64,000 bases of DNA from a virus. Positions 6,629 to 34,208 of the stretch are shown one piece after another. Within the stretch, counting starts at the first letter, position 1, and the number at the start of each line of letters is the position of its first letter. Where the stretch lies: positions 32,001 through 96,000 of IMG/VR virus record IMGVR_UViG_3300036770_005682; one strand, written 5' to 3'. Made by a program: the position numbers and the translations under genes. Under the pieces are notes generated by a model that was not told where the DNA came from, did not search any database, and worked only from the letters and a program-made list of their open reading frames with translations.

Positions 6629-9600
6629 TGAAATCTATATCGCTAGTTAGAGACAAGATTGACGGCTCTCCATTTGCTGTATTGCTTATCAACAAAGATG
6701 ATGTAACTGCATTCGGGTCATCTGGCCAAGGAAAAAATTGGGCCGATTGGGTAAATAGTCAAAACACTCAATTTGACAGCATTGATGACCTACTTGATGT
6801 AAGGCTAATTGCTGATACACCTGTACCGGCAAAAACGTTCAATGAAAGCAACCTGAGCAGCTATTTAGACCAGGAAAACATGGACCTGGTTATGCAGGAG
6901 CTGAATAAAAAAGTATTGCTAGAAGTAGTCAATACTAAATCAGCACAGCAAGAAGAGCCAATATTCAATGACGAGGAAGATGACTTACCAGACTTCATTC
7001 CGATGTCAATGTGGCCACTTTCTGATATTTCCCTTGCCTCGATAGATGTTGCATTTAAGTCAAATCTTGCAGCCTACAAAGCAAAGGCATTCAACCTAGA
7101 TAGAGACAGGCGAGCAATAGAGCTCGAGGTTAAATGGGCTCGTGCTATTTGGGACAATGACAGACAAGGGTGGCGCTGCCCACCAGAAACCCCTAATGGT
7201 GGTCAGTTTACCAACCGAATGGGCCTTGGATGCACAACAGGAATGATACGACGCCTTGGCCAGACGTTGATGAGCATCGAGGACCGCAACAAACTTCAAA
7301 TGACACTTCCGGGCCTTGAAGACCCACGCGGATTTCTATACAGAGCTGGAGCTCTGATAGATGAAAGAGCAGAGACGCGAGTAAGGAAATTTGCTGAGCG
7401 CAAAGAGCGTAGAGCAGCAAGGCGAGTTCGTAACATAATCGCCAAAGAAGGGAAAAAAGAACAGGAAAAACTGCAAAAAGAAAAGCGCCGCCATAATAGG
7501 TCTGGTGAATCAATAGGTGACATCTACAGAAGCCTTACTCCAGATGCAACCAGAACATCGAGAGTCCGCGCTGCCGGCGCAGTAAAGCTACGTAGATTTG
7601 CAGCACGAATAGAAGAAGAATCGCTTAGGGACGTAGGTCAAAGTCAACAGCGTCGTGACCGCAGAATGAGAGCTGTCACTGAAGAGCGTCTCAGCCCAAG
7701 AAAACTAAAACAATTACGCGACCAGGGCGGAAGAATACCCGGCTCCGACCTTGGTGGATATGTCCAAATGGACGTCAAGAGCGATGACGAAACATACAGG
7801 GCGATGGACGTCAATGGACAACTTATGGTGCCACGTGTCCTTGTGGACATGGACGAAATGCACTCTAATCCATTCTATGGTCGCCCAACATTGAAGGATG
7901 ACACAGGAAAAGAAATACCAAACCCACATGTTGACCATAAGTGGGTCACGGTTGAAGAAGTTCTCGCCATGTCATCTGTTAACCGCGCAACAAAACCAGT
8001 TCACGACTGGATTGAGATGCGCAAAGGACGTGGCTTTCCCGGTGATGAAACAATCAGCTACGTAGACGCCAAAGAATTAAAAAAGATACAAAAAGAGAAC
8101 GGCAGTATTGGCGTTAGGGTAAAGCTAAAAGACGACGGTAAAGGCACGTCTGCTGGGCGCGGAAAAGGAAAAGCAAAAACTAAACCGGCGCAAGGTGGCC
8201 CAATAGGTGATTTGGAGTGGCAGCCGGACGAGCTACCGCCGACGACTGCAAAGCAAATCCGCGACTCCTGGAGGGAAAGCAGAAAGCGTCTCGGCTCATG
8301 GATAGCAAGTCTCGACCCTTTGTCAGAGGACGACGGGAAAACACGTCGCGAAAAACGAAGAGAAAAACGCTCTAAAGCAAACAAGCCTGTTAGTGCAGTA
8401 ACTGCGGATGGATTTTGGTCCTCACTTTATCCCGATATCGAATCCCCGATTGAGGCTATGGATAGAGCAAGAGAAGCAAGCAGCGCTTCTGACAGCTTCA
8501 GGCAATGGTTTGAATCTGGTCAGTCGGGGAACTCACGCCGCTGGGGCTATAACGAAGTAATCGGAACTCCAACGCCGGAATTTGCCGCTTTTAAACGACT
8601 AGCCGACGGTGTTATTAGCGAACACGGAGGAGAAGTTCTCGTCGAAGGACCAGATTCAGGACACCCCCTGCGAAACGAGCTAGACAATAATTTTGAATTC
8701 AATACTAACTACAGAACATCATCTCCATTTCAACTTTACAACCTACGAGTCGTCACGTTAAATGATGGCGTAGAAGAGCGTAAAGTAATAGTTCTCGACA
8801 CGGTGTTTGCTAATGCTTGGACGGATAATCCACGAGATGAAAACAATAGACAATTAGACCCTACAGAAGCAGGTGTCCTACAACTTGCAACAAAATCAAC
8901 AGTTCTTGATGTTCCCCAAGATATTGTCGAACAAGCGGAAAAAGGAGATATGCGCGTTTGGGACTTTCTCGAAAGTGCAAACTTCGCGTTAATGTCAGGA
9001 CGACCAGGAACAACTCCAGGAAGCGTGTGGCTCGGATTCCCCCCAGCAGATGGAGCGCAAAACTTCGGCGGCGACAGGGTAATACGGTTTAATAAACGAG
9101 GAGCACCACTAAGCATTGCTTCTGGCTACCACGCAAGGAGCAATACGCCAAACCTTATCGGCGTAAAGACAGTGCACCTTGGCGGTACTAGCAATGCAAC
9201 AATAGACCTCCGAACTGGAGCAATGATTTCTGGTCGCATGGGTCCAGAGACGATACTTACACCAGATGGAGAAAAAGTACTTGATGACCCATCAATAAAC
9301 CCATTTACTGGCGAAAAAGAAAAAATGTGGATAGACAGGCTACCTGGCGCACGCAGGGGACGAAAGTCTCGTCGCCGCGTCGTCGGAGATAGGCCAGAAC
9401 AACCAGGAATAATCAGCCGCGTTGCCACAGCAGAGGGGCGACAGTTCTCTAGAGAGCGTCGAGCCGCCAGAAGAATGATTAAGGGCAAGACGCCTAGGGA
9501 CACAAGACCGCTCCGCCAGAGAATTGAAGCATCTTTATACGAGCGTTCACGTAGACGTACTGGCGATATCCGTCCGGAATGGCTACAGGCTCCAGATATA

Positions 9601-12600
9601 AATCCAGCAATAATCGAACAAGAGATACGCGATGCAGCTAGGTCGAATGACCCAGAAATAATTGCATCGCTGCCTGAAATAGGTGGAGTTTACGGTTGGC
9701 TTCTTCCTGAATCGTACCCAACAGGGACTTCCTGGTGGGACTCCGGCGTGAATAAACAAAGAGTTGATGCTCTCAATGCTTCTCTACACGAATTAGGTGG
9801 TTCATTTTTCCCACCAGTTACGCAAGAAGACATAGACAGGCTCCCCGAACTAGCAGAACAGGGGAGACTATGGTTGGAAGACATAAATGACCCAGACCAG
9901 CAAAGCACCCCTGGTGAAGTATCAAACTGGGGATTTGCTGAGTGGAAAGAATTCGAAGGGATGACGTATGTATACGATTCCCGAAATGAAACAAAACCAC
10001 CTATAGCAATAGTTCATAATGCATCTGGGACGACGCACCTAATTGGGAAAGACGGCAAGCATCTACTTTCCCTTGTCCCAAGGCTATCTAGCAACGGCGA
10101 AAATGTTTTCGTACCAATTGGTTCCCCTGAACTTCATAGAAAACTAGAAACCCCAAGCCAGGAAACTGGATTTTTGCAAACGCTTCTAGGGAAATTTAGA
10201 CGACGCGATAGACAGCAAGTCGAAACAGAACAAGTTATCCCAGGACTACGAGGTAGACGCAGAACATTTACGCGTGGGGATACAAGCATCAACGACGTAC
10301 GGGCAATATTCGAAGCCGGAGATGCTGGCTCTAGCCCAACATGGCCCTACTCATTTGCCACGCAGCAGAGAACTGGTTCGCAAATTCTTCCTAAAGCAAT
10401 GTCTGACGCTCAGATAGCGTTGGTTTTGGCTTCAGCAGAAAAAATGCAGGCGCAGCTAGAAGCATCCTTTAGACGGCAACTCGGTTTGCCACAAAACGAA
10501 TCTCTTACAGAAGATGGCATAAAAGACTTCATTGATGAACTATCTCGCAACGGCCGGAAACGCGAGGCTGGCATAGTAATAAATAATTTGCACGACCTTG
10601 CTGTGCTGGATGACCTTCTTTTTACTCAGGATATTGGCCACGTTAATAACCTAAAGCCTGGTAGGCGTCACATGATAATGCTTGATGCTGGAATTCCATT
10701 GTCAGACGCAGAGAAAAAGTCTAGACGTCGGATGACGCCTGACTTAATTTGGATAACGAAAGATACGGCTGGAAGTTCATATTTCAGGCTCTCCGACACT
10801 GGCGAACGAGGTCAATTCACATCTAGACGAACATTCCCCCAAGGAGATGTAAATCTATTAGATGTTGCTACTCCGCAAGGTCCATCATCTCCACGGCCAA
10901 CACCAACTGGGCCAGCGCTAATTCCCGGCACAGGGGACGTGACTGGAACAATCATTTATAGGGGTGGCTTATACTTTGACACTTCGACCGGCAGATACGT
11001 TGAAGACCTGACTGGTCTTGACTCAGATGGCGCGGACTTCTTGCATAAGCCTGTTCCTTTAGAAAACTATACGTTCAATGCGCTTGGAGATTTACAGGGC
11101 CAAGAATTTCCAAAGATTATTCTAAGCAGTGGACCAGGTGCTCCAAGGAGAGAGCTAGCAGTTGCTGCTCCTGGAATAAATCCACAAGACAAACGAGTTG
11201 CTGTTCAAACTAGACCTGACCTTGTGGAGGCTATAGTCACACAGCCATCATCGTTTACAGAGCTTTTCTACATGCTTAGAAACAGATGGCGCGCACTTGG
11301 TTCAGCTCAAAAATCGGAAGCCAAACTGCAGAAGCTGGGGCGGAATCCTGTTGCAACCGCCGACCTGATAAGTGGTATCAACAGCCCGCTACTAGCCAGA
11401 GCAGACGGCCTAGAAACAGAAGAGGGGATGTCTCTGTTTACATCGCCGGTAAATGCACCGGGCAGAACTATAAATAATGCTGCGGAAGTTCTTCGCGCGA
11501 TAAGAAATGCATCACGCAAGACCCCAACTGAAAATGGCCTATTTGATGAGTATTTGCCCGGGAGTGCTGGCGATTTAAGGCGTCAATCAACTGTAGTTTC
11601 AGGACCACACGAACTGCACCACTTACACGTTTTGGACAGTCTTGGGATAATGGAATCACTTCCATTTGAAACTGTTTACCTACCAAGCACACAACCAATA
11701 GGCAACCAAGTTGACATGCAAGCCTACGGTTACGGTCTTCCGCACATAGACAATGGTCTTTTCATGCCGCTCAACTCGGCTCTGCAACTTGATTTTGCCG
11801 CGAGGACAATGCGCAGATTGCTTGATTCTGGCAGCCAGCAAGACCGAGATGGATGGGATAGGACTTGGGGTAGGCGTGCTGGCGGCAGGTACGACATAAA
11901 TAAAGCAGACGTTGAAGAAGTAGAAAGAATGAGCGCCCTTGCATGGAAGCATGCAGCAGATGAACTTTCTAGAGTTGCCTCAGAATATGGAAACAAAAGA
12001 AATGACGCACTAGGAAGGTGGAGAGTAGGCAATGGGGTTGGGGAGAAAGACAACGATAAAGACCTGGCAGAAGTAACAAATTACGTCATGAATGGTGTCA
12101 TAGCTGAGCAGGCAGAATATCTATTGCACAGACACATCATTACTAACGATGACGTAATGCAGCAGATTGCTGAATCACATATTGCAGACATGACGAGACG
12201 CTCAATAGATGCGAACAAGAGAATCGACAGGCTTGAACAACTGCGCTCCGCTCAAACAGCAGTAGGTCGCAGAGCGACTGGCGGATATTCTCCAGACGAT
12301 GTCGACCCAATCGAATTGTTGCCCATACTTGACCGTCACGGAGATGGAGTAACAACAACTGCTCCGCTTAGAGATTTAGGCGAAATATCCGAAATAATGG
12401 CAGACCATAAAGCTCTCGGTTTTGCCGCCCCACTTGAGATAGACCCCGTAACAGGAGAGTTTGTTCCTCAAATTCTCACAGATGACCAAATAGAAGCCCT
12501 AGCGCTAATTGACTATGCATACAAGCGCCACAACATCATGACAAACATGATGGGGCAATCCAGGAATGCGGCAATAGAGGAAGCTCGTGCTGAATTCGGT

Positions 12601-14007
12601 TACGCGCCAGGTTCGCCAGAAGCAGACACAGCTTATGGACATATTGATATAGATGCGCTGGACGGAATTTACAAACTTGGTCAGCGCCCCAACATGGGTG
12701 ACAACATATTGTGGGGTTTCCTGCAAGCTTCTGGTTTCAATGACAACCCACTATTGCTAGACGTACAAGAATTGAGAGAAATAGCTCAGACAGAAGACGG
12801 GAATGGCAAACGTCAAGCAATTTTGATGTCGCGAGGGGTTAATTCAACCGTTGACGCTAGCGGAAGAAGCGTCCCCGCAACGCGTTTTGTCAACATGCTT
12901 TTGCGACTAAAGAGGTCGATAACTGGACGTGGCGGGCAACAGCATGGTACGGGAGAATATTGGAGCTCTCAACCAACAGAATGGGCCCCAAACAACGATG
13001 GTGCTGCTATCGGCGTATTGGCTAGAGACATGGCCCGCATTGCTTCGCATGAGGTCATGGTTGGCCCAAATTCCAGCGCCACCACCAATGGAGCAGGTGG
13101 AATAGTATCAAGCCACATGTACGAAGCTCTATGGGCGATAGCTAACGCATTGGGTGCGCGAGGGTTTGGGAGAGGCCCCAACGCACTCCATGGAAGCGAA
13201 TACCAAACAGACATACCTGTCAACTCGGTGAATTTCGACCCGGTAACTGGCCTCTATGACCAGGGGGGCTTGGATGCTTTGCGAGACAAGGTGATGGAAC
13301 TTCTTGAGGAATACAACCCAAATGTTCCAGGTTCACAGGGAGGCCTAATGACAGTCGAAAACTGGTCATTGCGGACAGGACGCTTCCAGAGCTCAATAAT
13401 CCCAGATATGGGCCAGGGTTCAATTGTTAACCAAGAACGTAACGATGCTGCCCAGCGTGAACGCCGCCATCTAAACGCTTGGTTGGGGCAGCAAGCAAGC
13501 TGGCTAATACAATTAGCTCAACTACGGAGAGACGAATCAGACCCGGTAAACGGAGACGAAAACAAAGAGTGGAATCGCCGCCTTGAGGCTGCCGGCCATT
13601 CGCTCGTAATGATGGCACCGAATGGAAGAGCTGCGCTAATGGGATACGACGCACTAATACGAAACACCCAAGACTCAATACAGGTTGGTGGTTTAACTAA
13701 TGCTGACAACAGGTTCAGTGACTACGACTTCTGGGAAGACGATATTAGTAGAATCACATTATACCCGCCTAAAGTTGTAGTACTTCTGAATAGGACTTCA
13801 GTTCCGATGCTGCGCATAGCACACGAGCCGACTCAGACAGTTACCAATTATTCGCGGACAAGACAATTTATGGGATGGCTAGAAAACACCGGACTAACAT
13901 GGGACGACATTGTTCCAGAACCTATGGCAAACCCAACCACACAAGAAGAAATTGACCTTGCAAGAAGGCTCACTACGTATCTCCGGCGCTGGGGGTTAAG
14001 CCAATGA
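6628..14007 (+). CDS. Giant 2459-aa polyvalent protein; one ISGRMG (9226-9243); C-terminal ADP-ribosyltransferase-like region (~12720-13800)
   Basis: Long uninterrupted ORF; GFNDNP...LMSRGV...GRGGQQHGTGEYWS...GYDALI...VLLNR pattern. Confidence 0.7.
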   Translation: MKSISLVRDKIDGSPFAVLLINKDDVTAFGSSGQGKNWADWVNSQNTQFDSIDDLLDVRLIADTPVPAKTFNESNLSSYLDQENMDLVMQELNKKVLLEVVNTKSAQQEEPIFNDEEDDLPDFIPMSMWPLSDISLASIDVAFKSNLAAYKAKAFNLDRDRRAIELEVKWARAIWDNDRQGWRCPPETPNGGQFTNRMGLGCTTGMIRRLGQTLMSIEDRNKLQMTLPGLEDPRGFLYRAGALIDERAETRVRKFAERKERRAARRVRNIIAKEGKKEQEKLQKEKRRHNRSGESIGDIYRSLTPDATRTSRVRAAGAVKLRRFAARIEEESLRDVGQSQQRRDRRMRAVTEERLSPRKLKQLRDQGGRIPGSDLGGYVQMDVKSDDETYRAMDVNGQLMVPRVLVDMDEMHSNPFYGRPTLKDDTGKEIPNPHVDHKWVTVEEVLAMSSVNRATKPVHDWIEMRKGRGFPGDETISYVDAKELKKIQKENGSIGVRVKLKDDGKGTSAGRGKGKAKTKPAQGGPIGDLEWQPDELPPTTAKQIRDSWRESRKRLGSWIASLDPLSEDDGKTRREKRREKRSKANKPVSAVTADGFWSSLYPDIESPIEAMDRAREASSASDSFRQWFESGQSGNSRRWGYNEVIGTPTPEFAAFKRLADGVISEHGGEVLVEGPDSGHPLRNELDNNFEFNTNYRTSSPFQLYNLRVVTLNDGVEERKVIVLDTVFANAWTDNPRDENNRQLDPTEAGVLQLATKSTVLDVPQDIVEQAEKGDMRVWDFLESANFALMSGRPGTTPGSVWLGFPPADGAQNFGGDRVIRFNKRGAPLSIASGYHARSNTPNLIGVKTVHLGGTSNATIDLRTGAMISGRMGPETILTPDGEKVLDDPSINPFTGEKEKMWIDRLPGARRGRKSRRRVVGDRPEQPGIISRVATAEGRQFSRERRAARRMIKGKTPRDTRPLRQRIEASLYERSRRRTGDIRPEWLQAPDINPAIIEQEIRDAARSNDPEIIASLPEIGGVYGWLLPESYPTGTSWWDSGVNKQRVDALNASLHELGGSFFPPVTQEDIDRLPELAEQGRLWLEDINDPDQQSTPGEVSNWGFAEWKEFEGMTYVYDSRNETKPPIAIVHNASGTTHLIGKDGKHLLSLVPRLSSNGENVFVPIGSPELHRKLETPSQETGFLQTLLGKFRRRDRQQVETEQVIPGLRGRRRTFTRGDTSINDVRAIFEAGDAGSSPTWPYSFATQQRTGSQILPKAMSDAQIALVLASAEKMQAQLEASFRRQLGLPQNESLTEDGIKDFIDELSRNGRKREAGIVINNLHDLAVLDDLLFTQDIGHVNNLKPGRRHMIMLDAGIPLSDAEKKSRRRMTPDLIWITKDTAGSSYFRLSDTGERGQFTSRRTFPQGDVNLLDVATPQGPSSPRPTPTGPALIPGTGDVTGTIIYRGGLYFDTSTGRYVEDLTGLDSDGADFLHKPVPLENYTFNALGDLQGQEFPKIILSSGPGAPRRELAVAAPGINPQDKRVAVQTRPDLVEAIVTQPSSFTELFYMLRNRWRALGSAQKSEAKLQKLGRNPVATADLISGINSPLLARADGLETEEGMSLFTSPVNAPGRTINNAAEVLRAIRNASRKTPTENGLFDEYLPGSAGDLRRQSTVVSGPHELHHLHVLDSLGIMESLPFETVYLPSTQPIGNQVDMQAYGYGLPHIDNGLFMPLNSALQLDFAARTMRRLLDSGSQQDRDGWDRTWGRRAGGRYDINKADVEEVERMSALAWKHAADELSRVASEYGNKRNDALGRWRVGNGVGEKDNDKDLAEVTNYVMNGVIAEQAEYLLHRHIITNDDVMQQIAESHIADMTRRSIDANKRIDRLEQLRSAQTAVGRRATGGYSPDDVDPIELLPILDRHGDGVTTTAPLRDLGEISEIMADHKALGFAAPLEIDPVTGEFVPQILTDDQIEALALIDYAYKRHNIMTNMMGQSRNAAIEEARAEFGYAPGSPEADTAYGHIDIDALDGIYKLGQRPNMGDNILWGFLQASGFNDNPLLLDVQELREIAQTEDGNGKRQAILMSRGVNSTVDASGRSVPATRFVNMLLRLKRSITGRGGQQHGTGEYWSSQPTEWAPNNDGAAIGVLARDMARIASHEVMVGPNSSATTNGAGGIVSSHMYEALWAIANALGARGFGRGPNALHGSEYQTDIPVNSVNFDPVTGLYDQGGLDALRDKVMELLEEYNPNVPGSQGGLMTVENWSLRTGRFQSSIIPDMGQGSIVNQERNDAAQRERRHLNAWLGQQASWLIQLAQLRRDESDPVNGDENKEWNRRLEAAGHSLVMMAPNGRAALMGYDALIRNTQDSIQVGGLTNADNRFSDYDFWEDDISRITLYPPKVVVLLNRTSVPMLRIAHEPTQTVTNYSRTRQFMGWLENTGLTWDDIVPEPMANPTTQEEIDLARRLTTYLRRWGLSQ

Positions 14008-14393
14008 AAAAAATAGACAAATCAGAGCTGAGTCGTGATGAATTTGCAATGTATTCGCAAAGCAAATTAAAACTCACACAAGCAGTTGAGGAGCTTATCA
14101 ACCTGCTTGGGTATCCGCCATTCGGATTTGATAAAACCGGCAAGTCAAGCGAAATGTATGCCGAAGTCATGGCTGACATAAATGAAACTTTAAACAACAT
14201 TGATGAGGAAGATTTCATTACAGATAGATACGTGCCACTAGCCGAAATAAAGAAAAAATACGCAACAGAAATATCTCAAGCCAAGCGGCTGAGAGATGCA
14301 CATCCAAACATTGGCGCTGCGATTAAAGCATGGTTCGAAGATAATAAATTACAATTAGACGAGTCGATTGCATACCAATATGGCATTGGCTGA
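14004..14393 (+). CDS. Small acidic hypothetical protein coupled to the giant ORF (candidate immunity/partner)
   Basis: 129-aa ORF, ATGA overlap. Confidence 0.65.
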   Translation: MKKIDKSELSRDEFAMYSQSKLKLTQAVEELINLLGYPPFGFDKTGKSSEMYAEVMADINETLNNIDEEDFITDRYVPLAEIKKKYATEISQAKRLRDAHPNIGAAIKAWFEDNKLQLDESIAYQYGIG

Positions 14394-14395
14394 AC

Positions 14396-17300
14396 ATGGA
14401 AGACGAAGCAAAAAAACCGGATAATAGAAAAAATCGCCGGAAGAAAAAGAACTGGGAAAAACTGAAAGAATCTCCGATAGTCGGTATTTCAACCCTTCCT
14501 GGCGGGGGACTTGTTTCCGCACCGATAATGGGAAAAGCTCTGGGCTCAAGAATAGGTCGCCGAATAGGCGGAGCAGGCAAAACACCAACAGACATGAACC
14601 CGGCAACCGCCAGAGATGCTGACAAGGACATGATAGTTCTTGAAGGTGTACCCACCATAAATCAGGGTAGAGGAGTACCCGACCCAACGCCAGGCGGTGA
14701 AATATCAGGCCGCATGGGGAGGGAACAAAACAAAGAAGAATTTGTGGGCTTAGAAAAGTTGCTCAGGCAACATTTTGGCCAATTTGCAAAATTCCAAGAA
14801 TGGACGAGAAACAAAGATTGGCGCGCATTCCACAGAAACCATTTTGACTGGTGGATGTTCCCAATCCCAAGGGGCTCTAATACGTATCGCGATGAGTACA
14901 ACGTCGCAGGCGAGCCACTGGCAGAACTATTAAACAATAGACGATATATGGAAACCTTGCCAGCAGCAATGCGAATGTATCTTCGCTCAATCGGCTGGGA
15001 CATGGATAAGAAAAACTGGATTGCTGATGCTGATATAGAAAACGGTCAAGAGCCGGTACGAAGTCTAAATCAAGCTCGCTTGTATAAAATCGCTCAGTCC
15101 GCAGAAGCACACAACTTGATTGACGAACTGCGCTCAGTGAGTCTGATGGTTGACGATATGCGAGCCAGTGGGATACGCGTAGGAAATGATAATTATTGGA
15201 ACTCTATTTCTGGTCGCATGGCCAACAACGAATTTGTAAAACCAGATTTTCCAGAAAATGCAAAACCTGGAGACAAGTACTCGACAGGCGTTGAAGGTGA
15301 TACGCGCGAGTGGCAATTTGACGGCAGACTATGGGTAAGACAGGACTCAGGCGGCAAGCGCGCGGCAACAATGGGGTTCCGCAAAGCTGGTGGAAGTACA
15401 GGGAAAAGTATTTCGCCATCCGCTACATCAATTGCTGTTGGCCAAAACAAAAGAGCAATGACATATGGGACTCCAGAATTTGATGAAATATGGGCCCGCA
15501 GGGACGCCAATAACGAAGCCGGGGAAGGCGATGGAGTTACGTTTGACTGGAAAGATGAATCCTCGAGACTCCAATACATAGCATTAATGAATGGCTCCGG
15601 ATTCCCGATGAAACACCCGAAGACCAGAAAACGTGTTGGTTGGGCAAAATTCGGAGAAGGGGCAAACCCTCCAGGGGATTATCCGAGAAGGGGTGTGCCC
15701 GGATGGGTCGACAGGCTTAAACCAGAACTAAAGGACCTCGGAATAGCAATAGTACCCAAAGACCACAGCACAATGGGGGACCAGTACGGTTCATGGATTT
15801 CTTTTTCTGGCACCCCTGGTTCGCCCTCCGCTGAAGGCCAAGCAGCAAAACAACTTTTAACACATTTGGCAGAAACTATAAGCCCAGATACGTTTTATGA
15901 ACACTTTGAAGCGTGGTTACGAAATCCTTACGTGACTGCGAAAAAAAATGGGAAAGATGTTGGCGTTAGGCTTGCGTTTAATAACGATAGAGAGCGCTTA
16001 CTAAATGAATACAGGCGTCGCGTCATTGCTCTACGAGATTCTATGTATGACTACTTCGGTAACCCAATGGATGAAGTTGGCGCAACGATGGTTAAACCTG
16101 TTGTAGACGATGAACTATCCCCATCTACTCAAATAGGAAGCACTGGGAACGACTGGAAAGACATAACATCATCTGCCCCTTGGGCTGCACAGCGCATTGC
16201 AGCTGCCGCAACAGAGGCTGCAGCAGACGAAATACCACGCAGCAAAGACAGACTGAAGCACATGATTCAATCACGTGTTCAAATGACATTGCCGCAAGAA
16301 ATAGTTGATTTAATCGGCACATCTGAATCATTGATTGACACGCTCTTGCGAGAGAATTTCAAAAATAGAGATTGGGGCCGTGATTCGGAATTTGACGCCC
16401 CAGATATTTTGCCGTCAGGTGACGCAGAAACTCTGGAAATTGTCGATGAACTAGGAGACCAGTTTATTGAATTAATAACCAGTAGAGAATCAACCACAGA
16501 AATAACAGACAATGACGCAATAGAGTTCGCTAGAGACATGGCAGATGACAGCGTGAACATGCGAGCAGTAAAGCCGTTTCTCCAGAAAAAATTAGACGCA
16601 AAAATATCTGGCAGGATGGGAAACAAACCAGAAACAAACGTTGAAGCCGAGAACATAGATTTTCTCCCAGAGTCACCGAATCATCTCGGCAACCACTTCA
16701 CATCGCGCCACGAGGGCTATGACATCAGGCCGGACCCCGTTGACTCGATACAGGAGGCTCGCAGAACTGGAGCTCCATTAAAGGGTCTTACTCCTGGCTC
16801 TTACAGCGAACAAATCCAGAAATATATGAACGGGCTTACAGATTATGTAATTGGTCTTGGGTTTACAAGCTACATGCAAACCAACCCAGATTTCTATATT
16901 GGCTCACAAGATGAAGAGGGTAGACAGAGGGCCGCTGATTTTCGCGGCTACCTCGGAGGATGGATTGGCACCGTATCTGCCGCAATAATGGATTTGGGCA
17001 CCTTTGGTGAAGATTTTGAGCTAGACGATGAACACAGAGAATTTCTGCGTCCATTCCTGGGTTCATCGGTAGACAAAATGAAAAATTTTTCCGACATACC
17101 AGACGAGGACCCTTCTGGGTATGGCGGCAACACAATGCAGGTGCTAAAGGGTTTGCTTTCCAGGGGTGTTGTGACAAGCACCCCAACAGATGGCAACGAA
17201 CTTAATGACATTGCTACAGGGTTGGCAATGAGGGCCATACATGCAGCAATAAAAACCAATAACCATGAACGAATCGGCGTTTCTGATGCACGGCAAGCAA

Positions 17301-18190
17301 CAGAAGACACGCTTGACTGGTGGAATGACGCCATAGGTGCTGCACTACTTACGACATCGCCTTCCGACTATGAATCAATCGATGATATTGGTTACTCAAA
17401 TCTAATGACCGAATCAGAAGTGTCAGTGGCTATGCCGGTATCAGCTGCTATACAAATGCTGAGGGAAGGCGAATTCAAAACACTCTTCGAAACAGATACA
17501 AGCCAAGGTAATAGCAACAAGTCTGCAAGGAGGACAGCAGAGTTTGCAATGTTTGGCATTTTGCCATCATATGCAGGCAAGCGCCCATCTTATGGCGTCC
17601 TTCATGTCGGAGGAATAACAGAGGATGCCCTTCAAAACACCAATCAATACGGCCCAGTACGTATTGTATTGAAAAAAGATGTCAATAAAGACGTTACATG
17701 GACCGAAATAGACTCTCTATCTTTGATGTCGTCAGCCTCAACGTTGCAAAAGCCGTCAAAACACAGTCTTTTCGGGCAGAGGCTAACCGCCGATACGCCA
17801 TTCACTAGAGTGAGCGCAGAGGACATCATTGCTCTAATTGAAAGAGGAAGAAATACTGGTTCAGCCGACGATAAAACAGCAATCGGAAGAACCAAGTATG
17901 CAGAAGCTCAAATTCATAAGTCAATTACCCCCGACGATATTGCATACATAATTATTGACGACACTGAATGGTACGGAACCCCTACACCTGATTTTCCGCC
18001 GCTGCGAGCCAATGGCGCTGCCATCAATGACGACTCAGCTGAATACGAAGCTGCCATGGACGTGTACCCAGATGACATAATGGATTATGACGGGTACATA
18101 CAGATATCAAAAATTGCTGAATCTCTTAACATACCCGTGATTCGTGCTTCAGACACCTATGACGCCGGCGAGGAAATAATTAGGCCATGA
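14396..18190 (+). CDS. 1264-aa polyvalent protein; OGFr/DUF1810-like domain, central unknown domains, C-terminal DUF3626/ART-like domain; 3 ISGRM motifs
   Basis: HFDWWMFP motif (~14840); GEFKTLFETDTSQG...RPSYG...QYGPVRIVLK...DSL...YAEAQIH (DUF3626-like, ~17420-17960). Confidence 0.75.
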   Translation: MEDEAKKPDNRKNRRKKKNWEKLKESPIVGISTLPGGGLVSAPIMGKALGSRIGRRIGGAGKTPTDMNPATARDADKDMIVLEGVPTINQGRGVPDPTPGGEISGRMGREQNKEEFVGLEKLLRQHFGQFAKFQEWTRNKDWRAFHRNHFDWWMFPIPRGSNTYRDEYNVAGEPLAELLNNRRYMETLPAAMRMYLRSIGWDMDKKNWIADADIENGQEPVRSLNQARLYKIAQSAEAHNLIDELRSVSLMVDDMRASGIRVGNDNYWNSISGRMANNEFVKPDFPENAKPGDKYSTGVEGDTREWQFDGRLWVRQDSGGKRAATMGFRKAGGSTGKSISPSATSIAVGQNKRAMTYGTPEFDEIWARRDANNEAGEGDGVTFDWKDESSRLQYIALMNGSGFPMKHPKTRKRVGWAKFGEGANPPGDYPRRGVPGWVDRLKPELKDLGIAIVPKDHSTMGDQYGSWISFSGTPGSPSAEGQAAKQLLTHLAETISPDTFYEHFEAWLRNPYVTAKKNGKDVGVRLAFNNDRERLLNEYRRRVIALRDSMYDYFGNPMDEVGATMVKPVVDDELSPSTQIGSTGNDWKDITSSAPWAAQRIAAAATEAAADEIPRSKDRLKHMIQSRVQMTLPQEIVDLIGTSESLIDTLLRENFKNRDWGRDSEFDAPDILPSGDAETLEIVDELGDQFIELITSRESTTEITDNDAIEFARDMADDSVNMRAVKPFLQKKLDAKISGRMGNKPETNVEAENIDFLPESPNHLGNHFTSRHEGYDIRPDPVDSIQEARRTGAPLKGLTPGSYSEQIQKYMNGLTDYVIGLGFTSYMQTNPDFYIGSQDEEGRQRAADFRGYLGGWIGTVSAAIMDLGTFGEDFELDDEHREFLRPFLGSSVDKMKNFSDIPDEDPSGYGGNTMQVLKGLLSRGVVTSTPTDGNELNDIATGLAMRAIHAAIKTNNHERIGVSDARQATEDTLDWWNDAIGAALLTTSPSDYESIDDIGYSNLMTESEVSVAMPVSAAIQMLREGEFKTLFETDTSQGNSNKSARRTAEFAMFGILPSYAGKRPSYGVLHVGGITEDALQNTNQYGPVRIVLKKDVNKDVTWTEIDSLSLMSSASTLQKPSKHSLFGQRLTADTPFTRVSAEDIIALIERGRNTGSADDKTAIGRTKYAEAQIHKSITPDDIAYIIIDDTEWYGTPTPDFPPLRANGAAINDDSAEYEAAMDVYPDDIMDYDGYIQISKIAESLNIPVIRASDTYDAGEEIIRP

Positions 18191-18411
18191 ACGAACTATT
18201 TGCAGAGGGTATTGGAGGGGGTGCCAAAATGTATAAAACCCATACTACATTTGTTGGAGATAGCCCTATCTACTTCGGGTACATCCTGAAAAATGGACAA
18301 AAAGGTGGAATAATTAATTTGTCTTCCGTTGTTGCCTCCAACCCTTCCTGGAAGGTTGTGGACGAATTTGCTACTACTAACGAACCTCTAGAAAACCCTA
18401 GAAATCAATGA
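18187..18411 (+). CDS. Small hypothetical protein (candidate immunity/partner)
   Basis: 74-aa ORF overlapping both neighbours by ATGA. Confidence 0.6.
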   Translation: MNELFAEGIGGGAKMYKTHTTFVGDSPIYFGYILKNGQKGGIINLSSVVASNPSWKVVDEFATTNEPLENPRNQ

Positions 18412-21400
18412 ACGAAAATAACGATTTACAATTTGATGAAAAGGACATACTTGGCGCTCCACGGATGGTGCGCGTCACGGACCCAGATGTTTTTTCAGAC
18501 CCAGACTCAGCGCGAGTAGCAGCTAGGCGCTTGGGGTGTATTGGAATCAGAAGATACTTAAACCGTTCCGGCGGTGAGTCATGGATGCCGTGTACAAACG
18601 AATCAGACTACAGAAAATACAGCGGCATAGGTGTTTCTGGAAGAAGATTTAGACGTCAACAGCTAGAAAGAGAAATACGTCAAATAACCGGCCGTGGCAA
18701 ACTAGCAAAAAAGACTATCGATTCTGCTGTAGAAACAAAAGCATCCAAGGCGAACAACTACACCAAACCCGAACTGCGCGAACGCCTCAAGCAGCGTATT
18801 ATGGCTGGTTCTGACGGAGGTGCACCTGGTCAGTGGTCTGCGCGCAAGGCACAAATGCTGGCTCAAGCGTACAAAAAAGCTGGCGGTGGATATAAGACTG
18901 GTGGAAAATCAAAAACGCAGCGTTCACTTTCTACATGGACAAAGCAAAACTGGCGAACAAGCGACGGCAAAAAAGCCAGACGAGGAAACTACACAAGGAG
19001 ATACCTCCCAGCTAAAGCGTGGTCAAAACTAACACCAGCGCAAAGAGCTGCAACGAATAAGAAGAAAATAGAAGGCTCAAAACAAGGTGAGCAGTTTGTG
19101 CCTAATACTGCCGCTGCTCGCTCCGCAAGAAAGCGGTCTGTTCGCGGGGCAAAACATTCTGCTTTTTATGAACTTCTTGAAATAAAAAGCATAGAAGGTT
19201 TAATAGAAGTAAAAGCCTTGCCTAGAAGAGCTGCCAGAAGAACACTGCAAACACCAGGCGCACTAAAGCCGCGCCTTAACTCAATGGGGAGAGACCTCAA
19301 CCCCGCTACGGCGCGAAACGCCGACAAAGACCCGTATGTTCTTGAAGGAATCCCAACAATCAACCGTGGGCGAGGCGTTCTTGACCCCACGCCTGGAGGA
19401 AAGCCAAGCCGGTGGGTTCCTCGCGTAAGAAAAGCGCCTTCCAAACCTGAAGTAGCTCCAGAAGCAAAGCCTGCACGTGTTTTACAGAGACAAGCAGAAC
19501 GCCTACCAAAACCACCACAGACACAGCGGCGAGAGTCTTCTTTCGATTGGCTACCTTCAGATTCAGATACATGGACAGAAGAAAACAAGAGACGTCTATT
19601 CGGGTTGCATAAAGAATCAGGGTTTTCTTACTCTGAGTTTGCTAAACGAAATGGTTTATTCGCGGACGACGTACGTGAGTCTGTCGAGACCATAAAGAAC
19701 AAGCGCAAGTCACGGCTCAACGCATTCAAGAAAAATCACCCCAAGTTGATGTCCGTAATTGGTTCGTTTGGTGCCGTGCGAGATGAAGCCATGGAAGCTG
19801 TCGCAGACGGAAAAGTAAAGGATTGGCCTTCCGTTGTGTCATGGGCATTCAAGGACCCCGAACTACGCCGCCAGCGTCTTTCAGACAGAGCAGTTAACGA
19901 CCTTTTCAATAGTGTAAGTAATGGCCTTGACCCCGATGGCAAGTCAGACACTGTTCTCGGATTTATACCCTCTAAAACAAAACCAGGAAAATCTGTTAAA
20001 ACGTTTGCAAAGCGTGGAGCACTCCCCCCAGATTTCACCAGTAGATTCACAACACGCAGAACAGCAGTAGCGCCAGCAAGAAGCATTACATCTATACCAG
20101 AAAGAGCGATACGCCGCCCAGAACGACGCATACAGCGAATTAGTCGCGATATCGAGCGCACGGCGGCAGCATACGAACGTCTTGATGCGATATCGGGTCG
20201 AATGACATCAATATCCGGGCGTATGGCTACGCCCCCTGGCCCAGACTCATCATGGTCGAACCAGCAAAAAGCTCAATGGAAAGCAGAGCAATGGCGGAAA
20301 CGATTCCTATTTGACGAAGCGTTGAATTCAGCAAGAGTCAATCTTTCACCAGAGCTTCAGGCGCACATTGCTAAGTATCCAGATACAGCCACTGCGGCAC
20401 GAGCGATAATGGATATGTCCGACAAGGACCTAGACGCACTGTTCAAGGCTCATAATGATGCACTCAAGGGAGCCAACATAACCATTAAGCCACCTCGTAG
20501 AGATGAGCTCCCTCTTCTGCCGTCCGAAGTGGCCGAAGCAGCCCAAATCAAACGCCCATTGGTTAGAGCATTCCTTGATGAATACAGGAAAATGGCACCG
20601 AACGGAACACTGTCGAGGCTCGATGTCGACACAATGTCAAATGAAGACGTCGAAGAAATGTTCAACCGCTATATCTTGCCGGAAATGGTTGACCCAACAC
20701 GCTTGGATGCAGCAGGTGTTGTAGACGTTGCGCAGAGAATCTCCCAGCCAGGTCAGGAAAATTCCCCTCTCCGTCTGTTGGACAATCTCGCCTACATGGC
20801 CAGCGACGACATGATGAGCCTAGAAGCTCGACGCAGGATTTTAGAAGAACGACTGAATGCTGGTATTGCGGCTGGAACAATGACTCCGGCGCAGCAGCAA
20901 GCTACGCAAAATGCTCTAGACGCAATAGACATGGAACTAGCGAAACTAGTTGCCGATTACGAGGCAGGTCAGCCGCTAGATACATCAATTCCATTTATCC
21001 CTGAAAACATACCTGACCCACGCAAAATGCCTCTCTGGGCTGGGGGACGTCGAGCCCTGGATTTCAACGACCCCGTTACAGCAGAAGATTACGTCATGTT
21101 CCTTCTAGAAAACGACGACGTAGGATTTCACCCTGAGTGGGGCCCCATAACACGCCAGGAATGGAACAACTGGGATGAAGATATAGAACAACGTATACAA
21201 CGAGCAGTCGAAGTGCATTACGAGGGTGGCGAGCTAGAAGCGGAAGATGCAATGAACGCTCTCACGGCCGAATACCAACAATGGTACAACGTTGGCATTG
21301 AAGCAGGCTGGATTGAAGGACAAGAAGAAGAAGAGCCACAACCCGAAAGGCCAATACGAGACGAATTTGGTGTACTCGATGAAGACTGGGTTTGGAATAC

Positions 21401-24400
21401 TGAATTTGGTTCACCCGAAGAGCTCGGCGTCACGGATGACCCATCAACATGGGCTCTACATCCGGACAACGTGCAGGATGATGGTGTAACCCCAATTGAG
21501 TTAGATGAACTTGAGCAGCTCATACTTAAATATGCACCGCGTAAATTTCAAGCCGACTTACTTGAAATGCTCAAGCCAAGTGAATGGACAGACCCTCATA
21601 GTGGCCACATTGACCAGCGCTATGTTGACCTGCCTCCAGAAATGATTGATTATTTTGTTGCTCAGGCTATGGGCACAATGCCACCTATGCCATCCGGTTC
21701 AGGAAATTTACCCACACCGAATATGGGCGGCGTCCAAGGAGATGGAGTAGGAATTTCAGACCCTGGCGGTCCGCGTCTGCGTCGCGGTATACCGTTTATA
21801 CCCAGAAACATAAACTGGGATTCAGCCTTGCGAATGTTCAAACGAATTATCGACAGACAGGGAACTTCTGCATCTGCTCCAGGTTCGTATCGCACCGCAT
21901 CGCTACGTTATGACCCAGCACTTGGTGTATATGAAGACTGGGGACCACTTCAGCTGCAAAACCAGTTTGTTGAAGCGGCTAAAGCAGCAAGAGAACTATA
22001 TGTATCGGGCACTGGGCAAGACTCACGGAAAGCAAGAGAGCAGGTATGGAACCTTCTCCAAGCGGGCAGAACCCCAGAAGAAATAGGACATGAGCTAATA
22101 ATCTTTGGAGCAGACCAGCCAGATACAAATAGGCCGCCACAGCCACTGGATGTATCTGACCTTGTGAAAGCCGCAGCGACAGCGTATGCAGTTGAAAACA
22201 ATCTCCCAGTTGCTGATGTTTCCAAAATGCTTAATGCAAATGCTAAAGCGTTCAATGCTGACGCTACACGCCAAGAAACTCTCCGCCGCTCACAACTGGA
22301 AAGGCTTCGTGCTGATTTAGATAGGCTTCTCAGTGGTCAAAGCATGGACCAAATTATCAAGTCCATTGACGGTTTGATTGAAGAAACAGAACGTAAGAAA
22401 TGGTTTGCTGACCAGGCCTACAGAATTGAGCGCGGCCATGACGCGCGACTACGGAAAGCTATTCTGGACCTAGCGGAAATGTACCCATTGCCTACGGCAC
22501 GCCGCCAAATATTTATGGAGCCAGACGGCTCTATCACTGGTACACCTTCGCGAAACTCAAGGACGTTGTACCAAGAGCCATACACGGGCGAAATATCGGC
22601 TGACGCAAATCTTGGCTGGCCATTAGCTTTTGATGAAGGTTATGACCCCACAAAAATTACTAGGGCTAGGCAGGCTAACAGAATTTACAGATGGTGGCGT
22701 CAGAACTGGGGCTATGTTGACCGCGATGAAAATGGTGAAATAATTCGTCAGTATGTTGGCCCGCTCCAGGGAACGTTAACTGCTCACCAAACTCACGCCA
22801 GAAAATATGGCAACGCGGGTCTATCTGGCACAACAGCATACGCAACCAAAACAGCTGATGCTCGAGTTAGGCAGCTAAAAGAAGTACAAAAACTTCTCAG
22901 TGAAGCCCGCCGCGAAGGCCGCAACTTTAACATCAGTGGATACATGCGTAATGCTGGTCCAAATCTTTATGAGTCATATTCACGCAATGCTGCGCGCTCA
23001 CTAGTTGCTGGGCGTAAAAATAAAAAATCTGCATCAATGCTTCTTGGTTTTGATTCAGAAAACATGCCTGTGACAAGAGCTATGAGGATTGCCTTCACTG
23101 GTGGTTCAGGAAAATTTAGTGATGCCGAAAATATGCATTCTTTTGCATCAATAATGAATCCAGAAAACATCGATTACTTTAATCACCTTTCTCCGGTAGA
23201 AAAAGATTATTTTAGGTCTCTTTATTCTGACGCTGAATTCGTTGTAGCCGTACCTCGAGACGCTGCAGTTTCGGCCAGTCGTTCAATTCGCGGGAAAGAC
23301 GGACTTACACCAGATGAAAAGCTAAGTCAGGCTTTCTATAAAGCAATGTCAGATACACGCCCAACTATTTCTGGACAGATGGGACTTAAGAGAAATCTGT
23401 CAAAAGCAAGGGGAATGGCAAGACGCAACCCTGAGTTGTGGCAGCGCCGCTACATGACTGCGCGTAATAGCTTCAGGATGGCGACGCCATTTAGACGGAC
23501 CACATTGCAAAACTATGACCTAGAACTCAGGCAGGTTGATGACAGCGTGTTTGGGCCAATTTCGGGTCTCTACCTTGTTGATAGAGCAACGGGAAATGTA
23601 ATCGATGGCCCATACAAATCAACGGAATTGATGTCGGCTGTGGATGCAGGCCGTGGCGCCATGAGGAAGGTCAAGGAACAAAATTATCCTCGCCCATGGG
23701 AGCAAATGCCGGAAATACAGAAAGCAATTGCATATGGCGTATCCAACGAAATGCGCGATTTCCTGACTCTCGATGCATATAAGTTGAGCGACATACGCAG
23801 TACGGTAAATGAGAGAGCTCTATCCTTGGATAAGGGCATTCCACAAGAAGCAGCAGATACCGCCGTATTTAGTCGTGACCCAGATACTAGCGACCTAATG
23901 GTTCTTATGATTCAGCGTGAATGGGGACCACATAAGGACGACACGGGCGCATGGGTACTGCCTGGTGGTTTCTCCGACCCAGGTGAAACATCACTAGAAA
24001 CAGCCATGAGAGAGCTCGCAGAAGAGACTGGGATAAAACTTCCAGCAGAGTCTTCCGACCCACAATGGTGGACGACAGAAGGTGCTAAAGCTTTCCGCCT
24101 CAAGCAAATAGGCACAATAGAAGCTCCAGACTGGGATGTGCGATTTACCAAAGGTGTAAAAGTTGGAGGCGCAGCATTGTTTGTATCTCCGGACATAGCG
24201 TTCTCGGCGGGGGATGATGCACGCAGGGCACAATGGATTAGTGTTCGCGACATTGCTGATGGCAAGATACCAGTTGGCTTCGGGCATATAGCTTGGATAA
24301 AGAACGCTTTGGGCCTAGAAAAAGATGACCCAGACGAACTTGATAGCGACCTTACGGACATTGGCTCAAAGCTGGAAAGAATAGAGCGCGCGACTAGAGC

Positions 24401-27400
24401 AAGAAACAAAGAGCTCATAGAAATATCGAATGACTGGCGTAAAAAACTCAACGCAAGTCGCGATAAAGATAATCAAATACCGCTATTCGATGAAAAAAAT
24501 CTTGGCTCCTACTCATCTTGGGAGTTAATACCATCCGATGACCTGATGTACATGGGTGCATTGTCCAAGCTCAAAGTGACAGGAAAACCGCATTCAGATG
24601 CTGACGTAAAAGCAGAAGTGGAGCGAACACGTGAAGTTCGCTTAGGCAGGGTTGGAACGAATTTTGGTCCATCCATATCTGGCCAAATGGGCAATATCGG
24701 ACCGGTCGACATCTACAAAATGCACATATCCGGCAAGACCTCAAACGACATATCTGAATCACTTCCCAGTACAGAAGCAATGCTTAGAGCAACACTGGCT
24801 CTTGGTATGCCGCTCAGTAAAGAGAGCCACAATATTAATCCCCAGGATGAACGAATTTTTCTTTCATCTGCTGTTCGTGGAGAGAATATTGCCGACATCG
24901 CGAGAAGAAACAACATGTCAGTGTCGGAAGCAAACAGTGTCGTCCAGAATTTCGCAAAAATGCGTGAATCTACGGAACCGGCAATCAATAAATCTTTCCG
25001 CAAAGCAATAAAACAAGACAAAAAACTTTCTGGAGCAGAAAAACAAGCCCTTACTCGTCGCCTTAACGGCGCAACAGTCAAAGAAGCGGCCGACTTCCTC
25101 GGTGTAAAGGAAGATGCTTATATACGGCGAGAGGCAAAACTGTTAAACGCCATTCGCGAATCGAATCCTAAAATGTTCAAATCGAACGGAGCCTGGTCAG
25201 ATAACCCACGCGCCCTGGCAGTAGACCAGGAAATATTTATGCGCTTTGTTCATGATGGCCAGCCAGCCTCACGTATAGCAGGCAACATGGGCATGACCGA
25301 AAAGCTTGTGAACAACATTGTCAAGCGCTACGCAAGATGGAGAGACTCCAATGCGCCAATTGAAACAAGCTCTATTAAAAACGCATTGCTCCGTCATTCG
25401 GATTCTTTAACTCCTGGCGAAAATATATTAATGAGTCGCATAGCAGATGGTGAGTCTGTATATGACTTTGCGAAGCGGACTAGAATGCCACGTAAAAGCG
25501 CTGAGCGTATGTATAACTCAGCAATGCTCAAGCTTCATATTGAGTCCGGTGTTGCTCCGAGCTCCAGGGTATTTAGCGCAAACATTTTCAAGGCTGCTCC
25601 AAAGCGTTGGATTTCGCCAATTATGCCAGCAGATATTTTGGCCAAAAAACCAAAAATATCTGGGCGCATGAGTAATAACGACAAAGCTATTTCAACCATC
25701 AAAGAATCTAATGCGTTTAACGAAACGGAACGTGGATTTGTTTCTGCGCCAATGAATGTTTTACGTGAAATGGCTATTGATATACGTCAGGAACTTCGCG
25801 ACCAAGTTGCAGATTTGTCACAAACTTCAGCAGAAATGCATCCGGTGCTCGGAGGGCATGAAGGCGTAAAGAAAATGGCGACACTGGGTGCATATATATC
25901 CAGGACACTAGAAGAGTCTCGTATTTCGGCATTGCTAGACGAATACAAGAGCGCAAAAACAAAATTCATATCGCGCGAACGAAGAGAGTCGGTCGAAAAG
26001 CAGGCAATACTTGACGCAACAAAAAAGCTTTCGGAAGAGCTATGGCTTAAAAAGCAATTTATGGATTTGGCGTCAAACATCTACGACGCTTATGAAAGAG
26101 CATCTTGGCCATGGTTGAAATGGGACAAGTCAAGCCCTGAGTGGAAACGACATTTAGGTGTCTTTGAAACAATGGAAATGTACAAAATCGACACTCCTAG
26201 CGGCAGAAGAAAATACATCAATGATGGCTATTACATGCCGCTGAACCCACGAGAAATGGAAGCATTCCTTGATGCTGTTAATACAAACAACGGCATTACT
26301 GGAAGGATGTCCAACCCGCGCCAATGGGCACGCTCTAGAGACCTATATGAAATCCTTGGTGTTCCAGATACTGCAAGCCCTGAAGATTTAAAGAAAGCTT
26401 TTAGGACAAAATCCAGGGAACTGCATCCAGACGTTAATAAGCGTGCTGACGCAGATGAGCAGTTCAAAGAGCTTGGTTTTGCTTGGGAAACTCTAAGTAA
26501 TTCGAGCCTTAAAGCTCAATACGACTCCTGGAGAACACGCAATGCATCTGGAGCTGCTGCTGACGGCGAAGTAGATAACTTTGAAGAAGATGCCAACTTT
26601 AAAGTCGACGACAACATGTACATTACGGACGAGCGTGGCCGACTATGGCCGCGTCATAATGCAAATAGGGACGACTGGCCGACAGTTCCATTTACAGAAA
26701 ATACAGTGTTCCCGCAGCGCAAATGGGCAGAAAAAGAGTTTGACGAATGGTCGGATTGGACAAGCCACAAAATACAACCATCGAGACCAGCCGGAAGTGC
26801 CCTATGGGGAGAGCGTGGCCCTGGCGACGACATAAGAGATGGTATCGAAACTGACTTTGGTGGAGGAGGCGGTGGGTTCCCAGAGGGCTTCATGTATCGA
26901 GAATCACCAGAGGAATTCGAGAGGCGACTAAGAGATGAATTTGAGAAGCGGCTAAGGGATGAGGGTGCTCAGTTTTGGGATGAGCGGACAATGGGCCCTC
27001 CCCCACGGCCTGATGATTTTCCTGGACCCCCTGGCTTCCCGTCACCTGAAGGGTCTATCAGTGGCAGGATGAGCAATTTCGCCCCACTAGATGACACTAC
27101 GAGGCAGCGTCTCGGTATAGGGGACCTTCCAAGTCTTTACGACCAGCAACAGCTAACTGCGCAATACCCCAAAGACACCGCCATGTTTTATGCTGCTAAG
27201 CCGGGAGAACCAGCAATAGAGGTAACAACAACATTTGGCGGGAAACTAAACCTGGCGCAGCATAGATACGACAACGTATATAGGCCAATTATTGACGCAA
27301 TGATAAATGCAGTCCGCCAAAATAATCGTGGACGTAAAAGGTTCATATCGGTAGGTGGCCCTGCCGGTTCGGGTAAAACAACTGACAGAAAAACTGGCGC

Positions 27401-28978: not shown

Positions 28979-29123
28979 TTGTTATTTCTATTAATACTTC
29001 CACTACAACGGATATTAGGTTTGGTACATTAGGTATCAGGACACAGGAGCTGGGTGCTTACCTAAGCAGATGTATCTGACCCATAATCCAAAAATCCAAA
29101 ACTTCTACAAGGAGAAAATCCAA

Positions 29124-33962: not shown

Positions 33963-34208
33963 ATGGCAAACGACAAAAAGTTTTCAGAGGCGCTTACCAG
34001 CATTCAAAACTACATAAAAGAAGAATTTCTTGACATGACTGACCCCGGCGACCTGTCAGACAAAGAATTGATAGAGCTTGACAATTCCATGGGGGAGCTG
34101 AGCCGCGCAGTGATGCATATATTGGGTCTCGAGATAACAGAAGTGAAATCCGATACGGAGTTTGTCGCATCTATATCGCTGCAAAGCACGGAGACATTGG
34201 ACATATGA
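33963..34208 (+). CDS. Hypothetical protein, probably leaderless
   Basis: TGnTAGAGT -10 box 6 nt before the ATG. Confidence 0.6.
   Translation: MANDKKFSEALTSIQNYIKEEFLDMTDPGDLSDKELIELDNSMGELSRAVMHILGLEITEVKSDTEFVASISLQSTETLDI

Follow-up and report, generated by a model that had tools for sequence, protein, structure and literature searches.

Why should two giant phage proteins that share nothing else carry the same short peptide near their N termini? The question arises from a phage genome in IMG/VR (record IMGVR_UViG_3300036770_005682; 137,811 bp, with direct terminal repeats and rated complete), of which we analysed bases 32001–96000, a stretch of 64,000 nucleotides referred to here as the window. 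A preliminary description of this stretch had pointed out a 36-residue peptide, here called the tag, in a 1264-aa protein and a 3462-aa protein, and had proposed that it is a removable address label that loads cargo polyproteins into the prohead, comparable to the capsid-targeting sequence (CTS) of phage T4. Here we describe the existence of this module, its conservation, its position within proteins, its genomic context and its distribution, and we weigh what it might do. Our best reading, to which we assign a probability of about 0.5, is that the tag acts on the uncut polyprotein as a prohead-loading or docking module.

Two giant proteins share a conserved peptide

Translation of the two tag copies (Table 1) reproduced the peptides given in the preliminary description letter for letter. 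The peptides are identical at 29 of 36 residues and the underlying DNA at 73 of 108 bases. Codon by codon, 9 of the 36 are the same in both copies, 20 differ without changing the residue and 7 differ and change it. The synonymous divergence noted earlier is therefore real and, as 20 of the 29 conserved residues are encoded by different codons, the peptide has been kept by purifying selection and does not derive from recent copying. The two carriers had been called otherwise unrelated, and blastp between them indeed returned the tag as the sole significant segment (E = 9e-15; remaining segments, E ≥ 0.35). When the complete genome was searched with an unfiltered profile of 37 sequences (see below), exactly two copies were found (E = 1.7e-25 and 6.8e-25), the next match having an E value of 0.72. 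Two further features of the preliminary description were borne out: a KAL..R..RR basic stretch precedes both copies, and both lie ahead of the first ISGRM motif of their protein, a predicted prohead-protease site, with a gap of 1 residue in the 1264-aa protein and 263 residues in the 3462-aa protein.

The tag is found on large proteins of several architectures

To find further carriers, we searched a two-row profile of the window tags against 1.84 billion cluster representatives (E ≤ 0.001) and obtained 38 matches, 36 of which contain the core. P0040 and P0041, low-scoring repeat proteins without the core, were rejected as tag carriers. The 36 core-bearing matches together with the window's second protein form the analysis set of 37 sequences used throughout. 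The two-row profile (A1) gave just weak copies in distant relatives, and a 28-row alignment (A2) took its place.

The resulting consensus spans about 55 residues: a KxLGxxIG element, 5–10 variable residues and the core [ND]PxTAx[DN]ADxDxxVLEG[IV]PxxNxGRG[VI]xDPTP[GF]G. Invariant in the 28-row alignment are the A and the two D of ADxD, the E of VLEG, the N, two G and DPTP. An element of the KxLGxxIG type stands ahead of the core in 21 of the 37 proteins. Between proteins that otherwise share nothing and that come from phages with different cut motifs, identity within the core is about 60%.

Carriers are 852 to 6391 aa long, save two shorter entries of 220 and 496 aa, and span at least five architectures. 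Proteins of roughly 5000–6400 aa with a DUF3721-like N-terminal domain carry the tag near residue 125; those of roughly 1000–2800 aa carry it at residues 30–60; in fusions of an S78 protease with DUF6321 it lies near residues 540–570; in proteins of about 900 aa with an HExxH motif it is found at 40–80; and in proteins of about 1850–2040 aa that are homologous to the N terminus of this phage's 2459-aa protein it occupies residues 205–260.

The tag has no family in Pfam, PHROGs or NCBIfam. A search of PDB sequences at E ≤ 10 returned 0 matches, and the ESM Atlas gave no usable match. Member names for 10 tag clusters included a single named entry, a 'hypothetical protein' of a metagenome-assembled genome. 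The tag was absent from one genome each of 185,579 prokaryotic species and from 50,697 isolated phage records; a megablast search of window positions 14000–20000 against isolated phages also gave no match. Literature searches found no description of the peptide; supplements, which may hold, for example, domain lists (PMC5512222), lay outside these searches.

The tag precedes predicted cut sites and is found in head modules

We next asked where the tag lies within its carriers. Its median start lies 5.3% of the way into the protein (residues 29–547 across the 37 proteins). A dominant xxXM motif occurs in three or more copies in 26 of these proteins, and in none of the 26 does a copy lie upstream of the tag. 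For 21 of them, with 133 sites in total, 6.9 upstream sites would be expected by position alone and 0 were observed; the five proteins left out of this sum (P0008, P0014, P0019, P0024 and P0026) likewise have no upstream copies. With no predicted cut site ahead of it, the tag would always remain on the first fragment. A [GAS]xM motif falls within the 12 residues after DPTP in 8 of the 37 proteins, against a background of 8% (binomial P = 0.008).

A scan of IMG/VR with the 28-row alignment identified 48 tag loci on 31 contigs, ten of which carry 2–4 tags each. All 48 loci lie in the head module and keep the same relative gene order, and each contains, on the strand of the tag frame, at least one homologue of the portal, the protease or the 481-, 688-, 1713- or 2459-aa protein of the phage studied here. 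The search across genome and related phages that the preliminary description had proposed thus returned two copies in the genome and head-module loci elsewhere. The appearance of the tag in non-virion proteins would speak against a packaging signal; so far we have found none across the species genomes, the isolated phages and the 48 loci.

In 18 of the 48 loci, the tag is in one frame behind an S78 protease and DUF6321, approximately 460–600 residues from the protease start, and is therefore attached to a protein that must itself enter the prohead. A related arrangement was seen at two loci (L034:11498–13117 and L072:12051–13661), where the open reading frame (ORF) right after the capsid gene consists of an acidic N terminus, DUF6321, a degenerate tag (ALGxSIGQR..NP..VDxDxDGxIFDGT) and long Pro-rich repeats, and so corresponds to the rear part of the protease fusions, with the protease itself missing.

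Tagged proteins resemble polyproteins with enzyme cargo

The 3462-aa protein contains 8 SGxM motifs, compared with 0.48 expected from its composition, and its sites end at residues 599, 606, 1658, 2094, 2421, 2634, 2888 and 3323. Each of its Pfam domains, namely NUDIX (1819–1883), sigma-r4 and HTH (2206–2309), DnaJ (2645–2706) and Zeta toxin (2972–3131), occupies its own inter-site segment. The 1264-aa protein has a weak match to DUF3626 over residues 1020–1195, below the Pfam cut-off. Across the genome, [ILV][ST]G[RQK]M occurs in frame 16 times in four giant head-module ORFs on the plus strand, and elsewhere just once, as an ISGKM in a tape-measure-like gene. A looser site pattern adds an ASGRM in the phage's 789-aa protease, at residues 325–329, between DUF6321 and a conserved middle domain.

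Relatives of these proteins in other phages repeat other motifs (ISGNM, PSGSM, GPVGxM, (A/G)EAGM, TASM and DTGxM), and the form common to all of these is [GA]-x-M. By their site patterns the giant proteins look like polyproteins with protease-cleavable joints, the predicted sites being of the [GA]-x-M form. HExxH motifs (for example, HEFFHHYLGQG and HEMGHYLD) were seen in many tagged proteins elsewhere (P0011, P0015, P0016, P0020, P0031 and P0037–P0039), which suggests that related phages may package metallopeptidase-like modules. The plant-pathogen effector HopAG1 also combines NUDIX, a Zeta-toxin-like kinase and DUF3626 and is linked to NAD+ metabolism; that the phage cargo might act against NAD-based defence is a guess.

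The predicted structure of the tag is small and its acidic loop fits the EF-hand rule only in part

AlphaFold2 (AF2) modelled the tag on its own as a small element with just two short strand pairs at a mean predicted local distance difference test (pLDDT) score of 66.6, too weak for a fold search; within the 58-residue stretch, a compact part covers residues 21–50 (pLDDT 74–87). A co-fold that paired the 445-aa capsid protein (29-row alignment) with the 58-residue tag stretch (28-row alignment) scored 0.00 in both runs, made without controls, and is neutral on binding.

The preliminary description had also suggested that the DADKD segment could bind a cation. Canonical EF-hand and DxDxDG loops follow the pattern D-x-D-x-D-G, with a hydrophobic residue at position 8 and an acid at position 12. 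In the tag family, [DN]-A-D-x-D hardly varies and position 8 retains its V, whereas most copies lack Gly at position 6, and the acid stands at 10, not 12. None of 28 tag sequences matched a Pfam calcium-binding family at E ≤ 10. Judged by these residues, the DADKD-type loop keeps part of the EF-hand pattern and does not look like a canonical EF-hand.

The head module and its genome

The tagged genes sit in the head module. Its genes encode, in order, the large terminase on the minus strand, portal–MuF, a 789-aa protein that combines Peptidase_S78 with DUF6321, a 481-aa protein that is very acidic and matches PepSY, and proteins of 1713, 214, 688, 2459 and 129 aa, followed by the tagged 1264-aa and 3462-aa proteins and the HK97-type major capsid protein. 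In the protease, encoded upstream of the window at genome positions 26255–28624, a Pro-rich stretch about 60 residues long (PRMPETEEPIELPDEIPVPEP...) is directly duplicated in tandem.

The listed capsid ORF starts 18 codons too early (window 29070–29123): in relatives, in-frame stops precede a conserved MSxD..R..ELQ start, so that the capsid protein probably begins at 29124. With the filter used, we recovered the capsid ORF from 76 of 80 loci, and a motif at the end of its N-terminal helical part, NGANM, is invariant in all 76 relatives and matches the [GA]-x-M pattern seen at the cargo sites. A poor AF2 model (mean pLDDT 50.3) places the N-terminal helices at residues 5–121, just before NGANM, and the match to the Phage_capsid family begins about 35 residues beyond it. 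These features fit an N-terminal scaffold-like domain that, as in HK97, would be cut off, here at a site of the cargo type.

We also observed a second N-proximal motif, RCPx(6-10)FTx(4-9)C, in the 688-aa protein (residue 133; window 4958–5030), the 2459-aa protein (residue 183; 7174–7250) and the 1713-aa protein (residue 151; genome base 30909, 1,091 bases before the window start), and nowhere else in a six-frame reading of the genome. It is missing from the five orthologues of the 2459-aa protein that carry the tag. This motif may be an alternative label.

A tail sheath, baseplate J and the tape-measure-like gene, all encoded upstream, mark this as a contractile-tailed phage. Its nearest isolated relatives by capsid protein are Brevibacterium and Gordonia phages (47–49% identity), and an Rpf-type transglycosylase domain is encoded at window positions 32028–33224; together these make an actinobacterial host likely. 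The phage belongs to a lineage of uncultured phages whose hosts are probably Actinobacteria.

Table 1 Features of the window (positions in window coordinates; the 1713-aa protein begins before the window)
Feature	Position	Strand	Remarks
1713-aa protein, C-terminal 1199 aa in window	1..3600	+	RNase T-type exonuclease; four ISGRM; no tag
2459-aa protein	6628..14007	+	One ISGRM; N-terminal domain homologous to tagged proteins of other phages; tag eroded
1264-aa tagged protein, predicted cargo polyprotein	14396..18190	+	SGRM sites ending at residues 107, 275 and 741
Upstream half of module, copy 1	14531..14590	+	GKALGSRIGRRIGG...; KxLGxxIG element and basic stretch
Tag copy 1 (36-aa core)	14591..14698	+	Residues 66–101 of 1264-aa protein
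First ISGRM of 1264-aa protein	14702..14716	+	Predicted prohead-protease site
3462-aa tagged protein, predicted cargo polyprotein	18408..28796	+	Eight [ST]G[RQ]M sites
Upstream basic stretch, copy 2	19212..19292	+	KALPRRAARR...
Tag copy 2 (36-aa core)	19293..19400	+	Residues 296–331 of 3462-aa protein
First two ISGRM of 3462-aa protein, doublet	20190..20225	+	ISGRMTSISGRM; first at 20190–20204
HK97-type major capsid protein	29124..30461	+	Likely 445 aa, from second Met of ORF
NGANM in capsid protein	29490..29504	+	Residues 123–127; end of helical N-terminal part
Rpf-type plus SLT transglycosylase	32028–33224	-	
ParB-like protein	34205–34957		
Class II ribonucleotide reductase	44537–46468		
PAPS-reductase-like protein	54243–55394		
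SNF2 helicase	55952–57934	-	

Discussion

What, then, does the tag do? It occurs once per protein, would stay on the first fragment, is attached both to unrelated cargo and to the protease, is found in head modules only and is under strong selection amid otherwise changing surroundings. A loading module would account for most of these facts. We infer the following course for cutting, docking and delivery. The polyprotein would be synthesised whole, and the tag on its first, N-terminal fragment would dock it onto a component inside the prohead as the latter assembles; candidate partners are the scaffold-like N-terminal domain of the capsid protein, the acidic 481-aa protein, the portal–MuF protein and the protease. 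The S78 prohead protease would then cut at phage-specific [GA]-x-M sites (here I-S-G-R-M), freeing NUDIX, Zeta-toxin-like kinase, DnaJ, HTH and other modules inside the head, to be delivered together with the DNA.

Several observations weigh against a loading module. The 1713-aa and 2459-aa proteins, with four and one ISGRM, respectively, have no tag in the unfiltered profile search of the genome. The first ~180 residues of the 2459-aa protein are common to tagged proteins elsewhere, and a mere remnant is left at the place of the tag; the 789-aa protease of this phage aligns along its length with the protease–tag fusions, and has only FDGDSDGFRTGPDGRD there. Among related records, 10 of 14 matched at E ≤ 0.1, and in all except the closest relative the copies are eroded, with mainly ARDADxDxxVxEG left. 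Of the records that are at least 90% complete, 3 of 10 gave no tag match at all, and relatives with a 72–79% identical capsid protein have eroded tag copies or none. In 29 of the 37 tagged proteins, no cut motif directly follows the tag. Searching for a partner by presence and absence did not help either: 16 of 16 relatives encode the acidic 481-aa protein, those that lack canonical tags included, and it thus does not discriminate as a partner. On this evidence from sequence comparison, the tag is neither necessary nor universal for head-module proteins that bear cut sites; tags are gained and lost among orthologues, and the tag cannot therefore be the only route into the head, if it is a route at all.

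Other functions can be imagined for the same peptide. It might bind the S78 protease, for example through DUF6321, and so secure processing or let cargo ride in with the protease. The tag in cis behind S78–DUF6321, the ORFs of L034 and L072 that join DUF6321 to a degenerate tag, and the eight proteins with a cut motif close behind the tag would all suit such an element; yet a site for docking the protease has no obvious use when fused to the protease itself, and the tag is on the first fragment only, while sites up to 6000 residues away need cutting. We therefore regard protease docking as unlikely. Alternatively, the tag-bearing N-terminal fragments could contain a structural or metal-binding mini-domain by which they self-associate, perhaps with a cation bound in the DxDxD loop, to build part of an inner body or scaffold. 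Here the partial departure of the loop from the EF-hand rule, the lack of a match to Pfam calcium-binding families and the low overall confidence of the model stand against the survival of [DN]-A-D-x-D-x-x-V-x-E-G even in eroded copies, the compact part of the AF2 model and the presence of 2–4 tagged proteins per genome, and we give this explanation a low probability.

The position of the tag near the N terminus of proteins that are probably delivered, in a module that also encodes a portal–MuF fusion, would be compatible with an exit leader, which would direct the cargo out by way of the portal and the tail and into the host during infection. Cutting at the predicted sites would leave the tag on the first fragment alone and the downstream enzyme modules without a leader, which makes this role quite improbable. 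Finally, the erosion of tags in some orthologues could be taken to mean that the peptide is a functionless left-over of common descent. We consider this highly improbable, as the peptide has persisted although its synonymous sites are saturated, and as the core has stayed so similar in proteins that are otherwise unlike and belong to phages with different cut motifs.

We return to the loading module and to the removable address label of the preliminary description. The label's portability, its N-proximal position upstream of the predicted sites, its restriction to head modules and its fusion to the protease agree with that proposal; the untagged ISGRM giants and the eroded relatives do not. 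Removability fits the eight proteins in which a cut motif lies within 12 residues of the tag and, given the other 29, is not general. A bolder version holds that the tag is a portable loading signal of HK97/S78-type phages that docks the protease and a changing set of injected polyproteins, possibly through a cation-dependent loop, that it is interchangeable with the RCP..FT..C label and that it forms, with [GA]-x-M joints, a plug-in grammar. This we put forward tentatively, as a possibility that we ourselves doubt. Were it true, such a grammar for cargo loading and release would allow injected effectors to be predicted from sequence and foreign proteins to be packaged. A loading signal would provide a sequence rule with which to list the head-carried, probably injected proteins of a large group of uncultured, freshwater-type phages, a cargo that would comprise NUDIX, Zeta-toxin-like kinase, DUF3626, exonuclease, metallopeptidase-like and DNA-binding modules, and would offer a compact tag for placing foreign proteins into phage heads.

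How does the tag compare with known systems? Encapsulin cargo-loading peptides are short, rich in Gly, Leu and Ile, bind the interior of an HK97-fold shell and are usually C-terminal; the KxLGxxIG element may resemble them, within a module that is longer and N-proximal. In HK97 itself, a C-terminal targeting region carries the protease into the shell. The T4 CTS of IPI-III and Alt is a short conserved N-terminal element on diverse head-internal proteins that does its work ahead of cutting by the prohead protease and is followed by a protease site (PMC3012670, PMC5694885). The tag is like it in being common to otherwise unrelated proteins, whose head-internal status we infer here from gene context. 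However, the CTS measures 10–20 residues and lies at the extreme N terminus, whereas the tag has a 36-aa core in a module of ~55 residues, ~30–600 residues from the start; the CTS is cut at L/I-x-E by T4-type gp21, whereas the sites here are [GA]-x-M, the protease is of the S78 (HK97) type and the carriers are giant predicted polyproteins; and the two have no sequence similarity. With its different length, position, cut motif and protease family, the tag is not a member of the T4 CTS family, and what stands of the earlier analogy is a likeness of function.

Ejection proteins of phiKZ and SPN3US have propeptides of more than 100 residues with a presumed role in prohead targeting, and the diverged paralogues gp53 and gp54 keep identical N termini (PMC5694885). 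Those are paralogues, and the jumbo phages that encode them use a T4-type protease and A/S-x-E sites, whereas here one module is found on unrelated architectures that include the protease. For the 250-kDa anti-restriction protein DarB of P1, a phage without a separate scaffold, the first 30 residues suffice to send a reporter into the capsid (PMC9024508); this signal is known for a single protein, not as a family-wide module, and comes with no polyprotein grammar. The closest counterpart of the carriers themselves is found in the polyvalent proteins of Iyer et al. (2017), which are multi-domain effectors encoded beside portal and terminase genes and predicted to be packaged and delivered, as outlined in the passages cited (PMC5512222). 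The 3462-aa protein has at least two effector-type domains (NUDIX, DnaJ, Zeta_toxin and HTH/sigma-r4), and terminase, portal–MuF, S78 protease and capsid protein flank the tagged genes; by domain content and gene context, the tagged carriers are polyvalent proteins in that sense. The same passages of PMC5512222 describe no common N-proximal tag and no phage-specific cut motif between domains. If the loading reading is true, capsid targeting would not be confined to T4, P1 and the jumbo phages: it would also take in HK97-type heads that use an S78 protease, as well as true polyproteins. What is new here is a sequence-defined tag family in HK97/S78-type phages with what look like polyproteins in the true sense.

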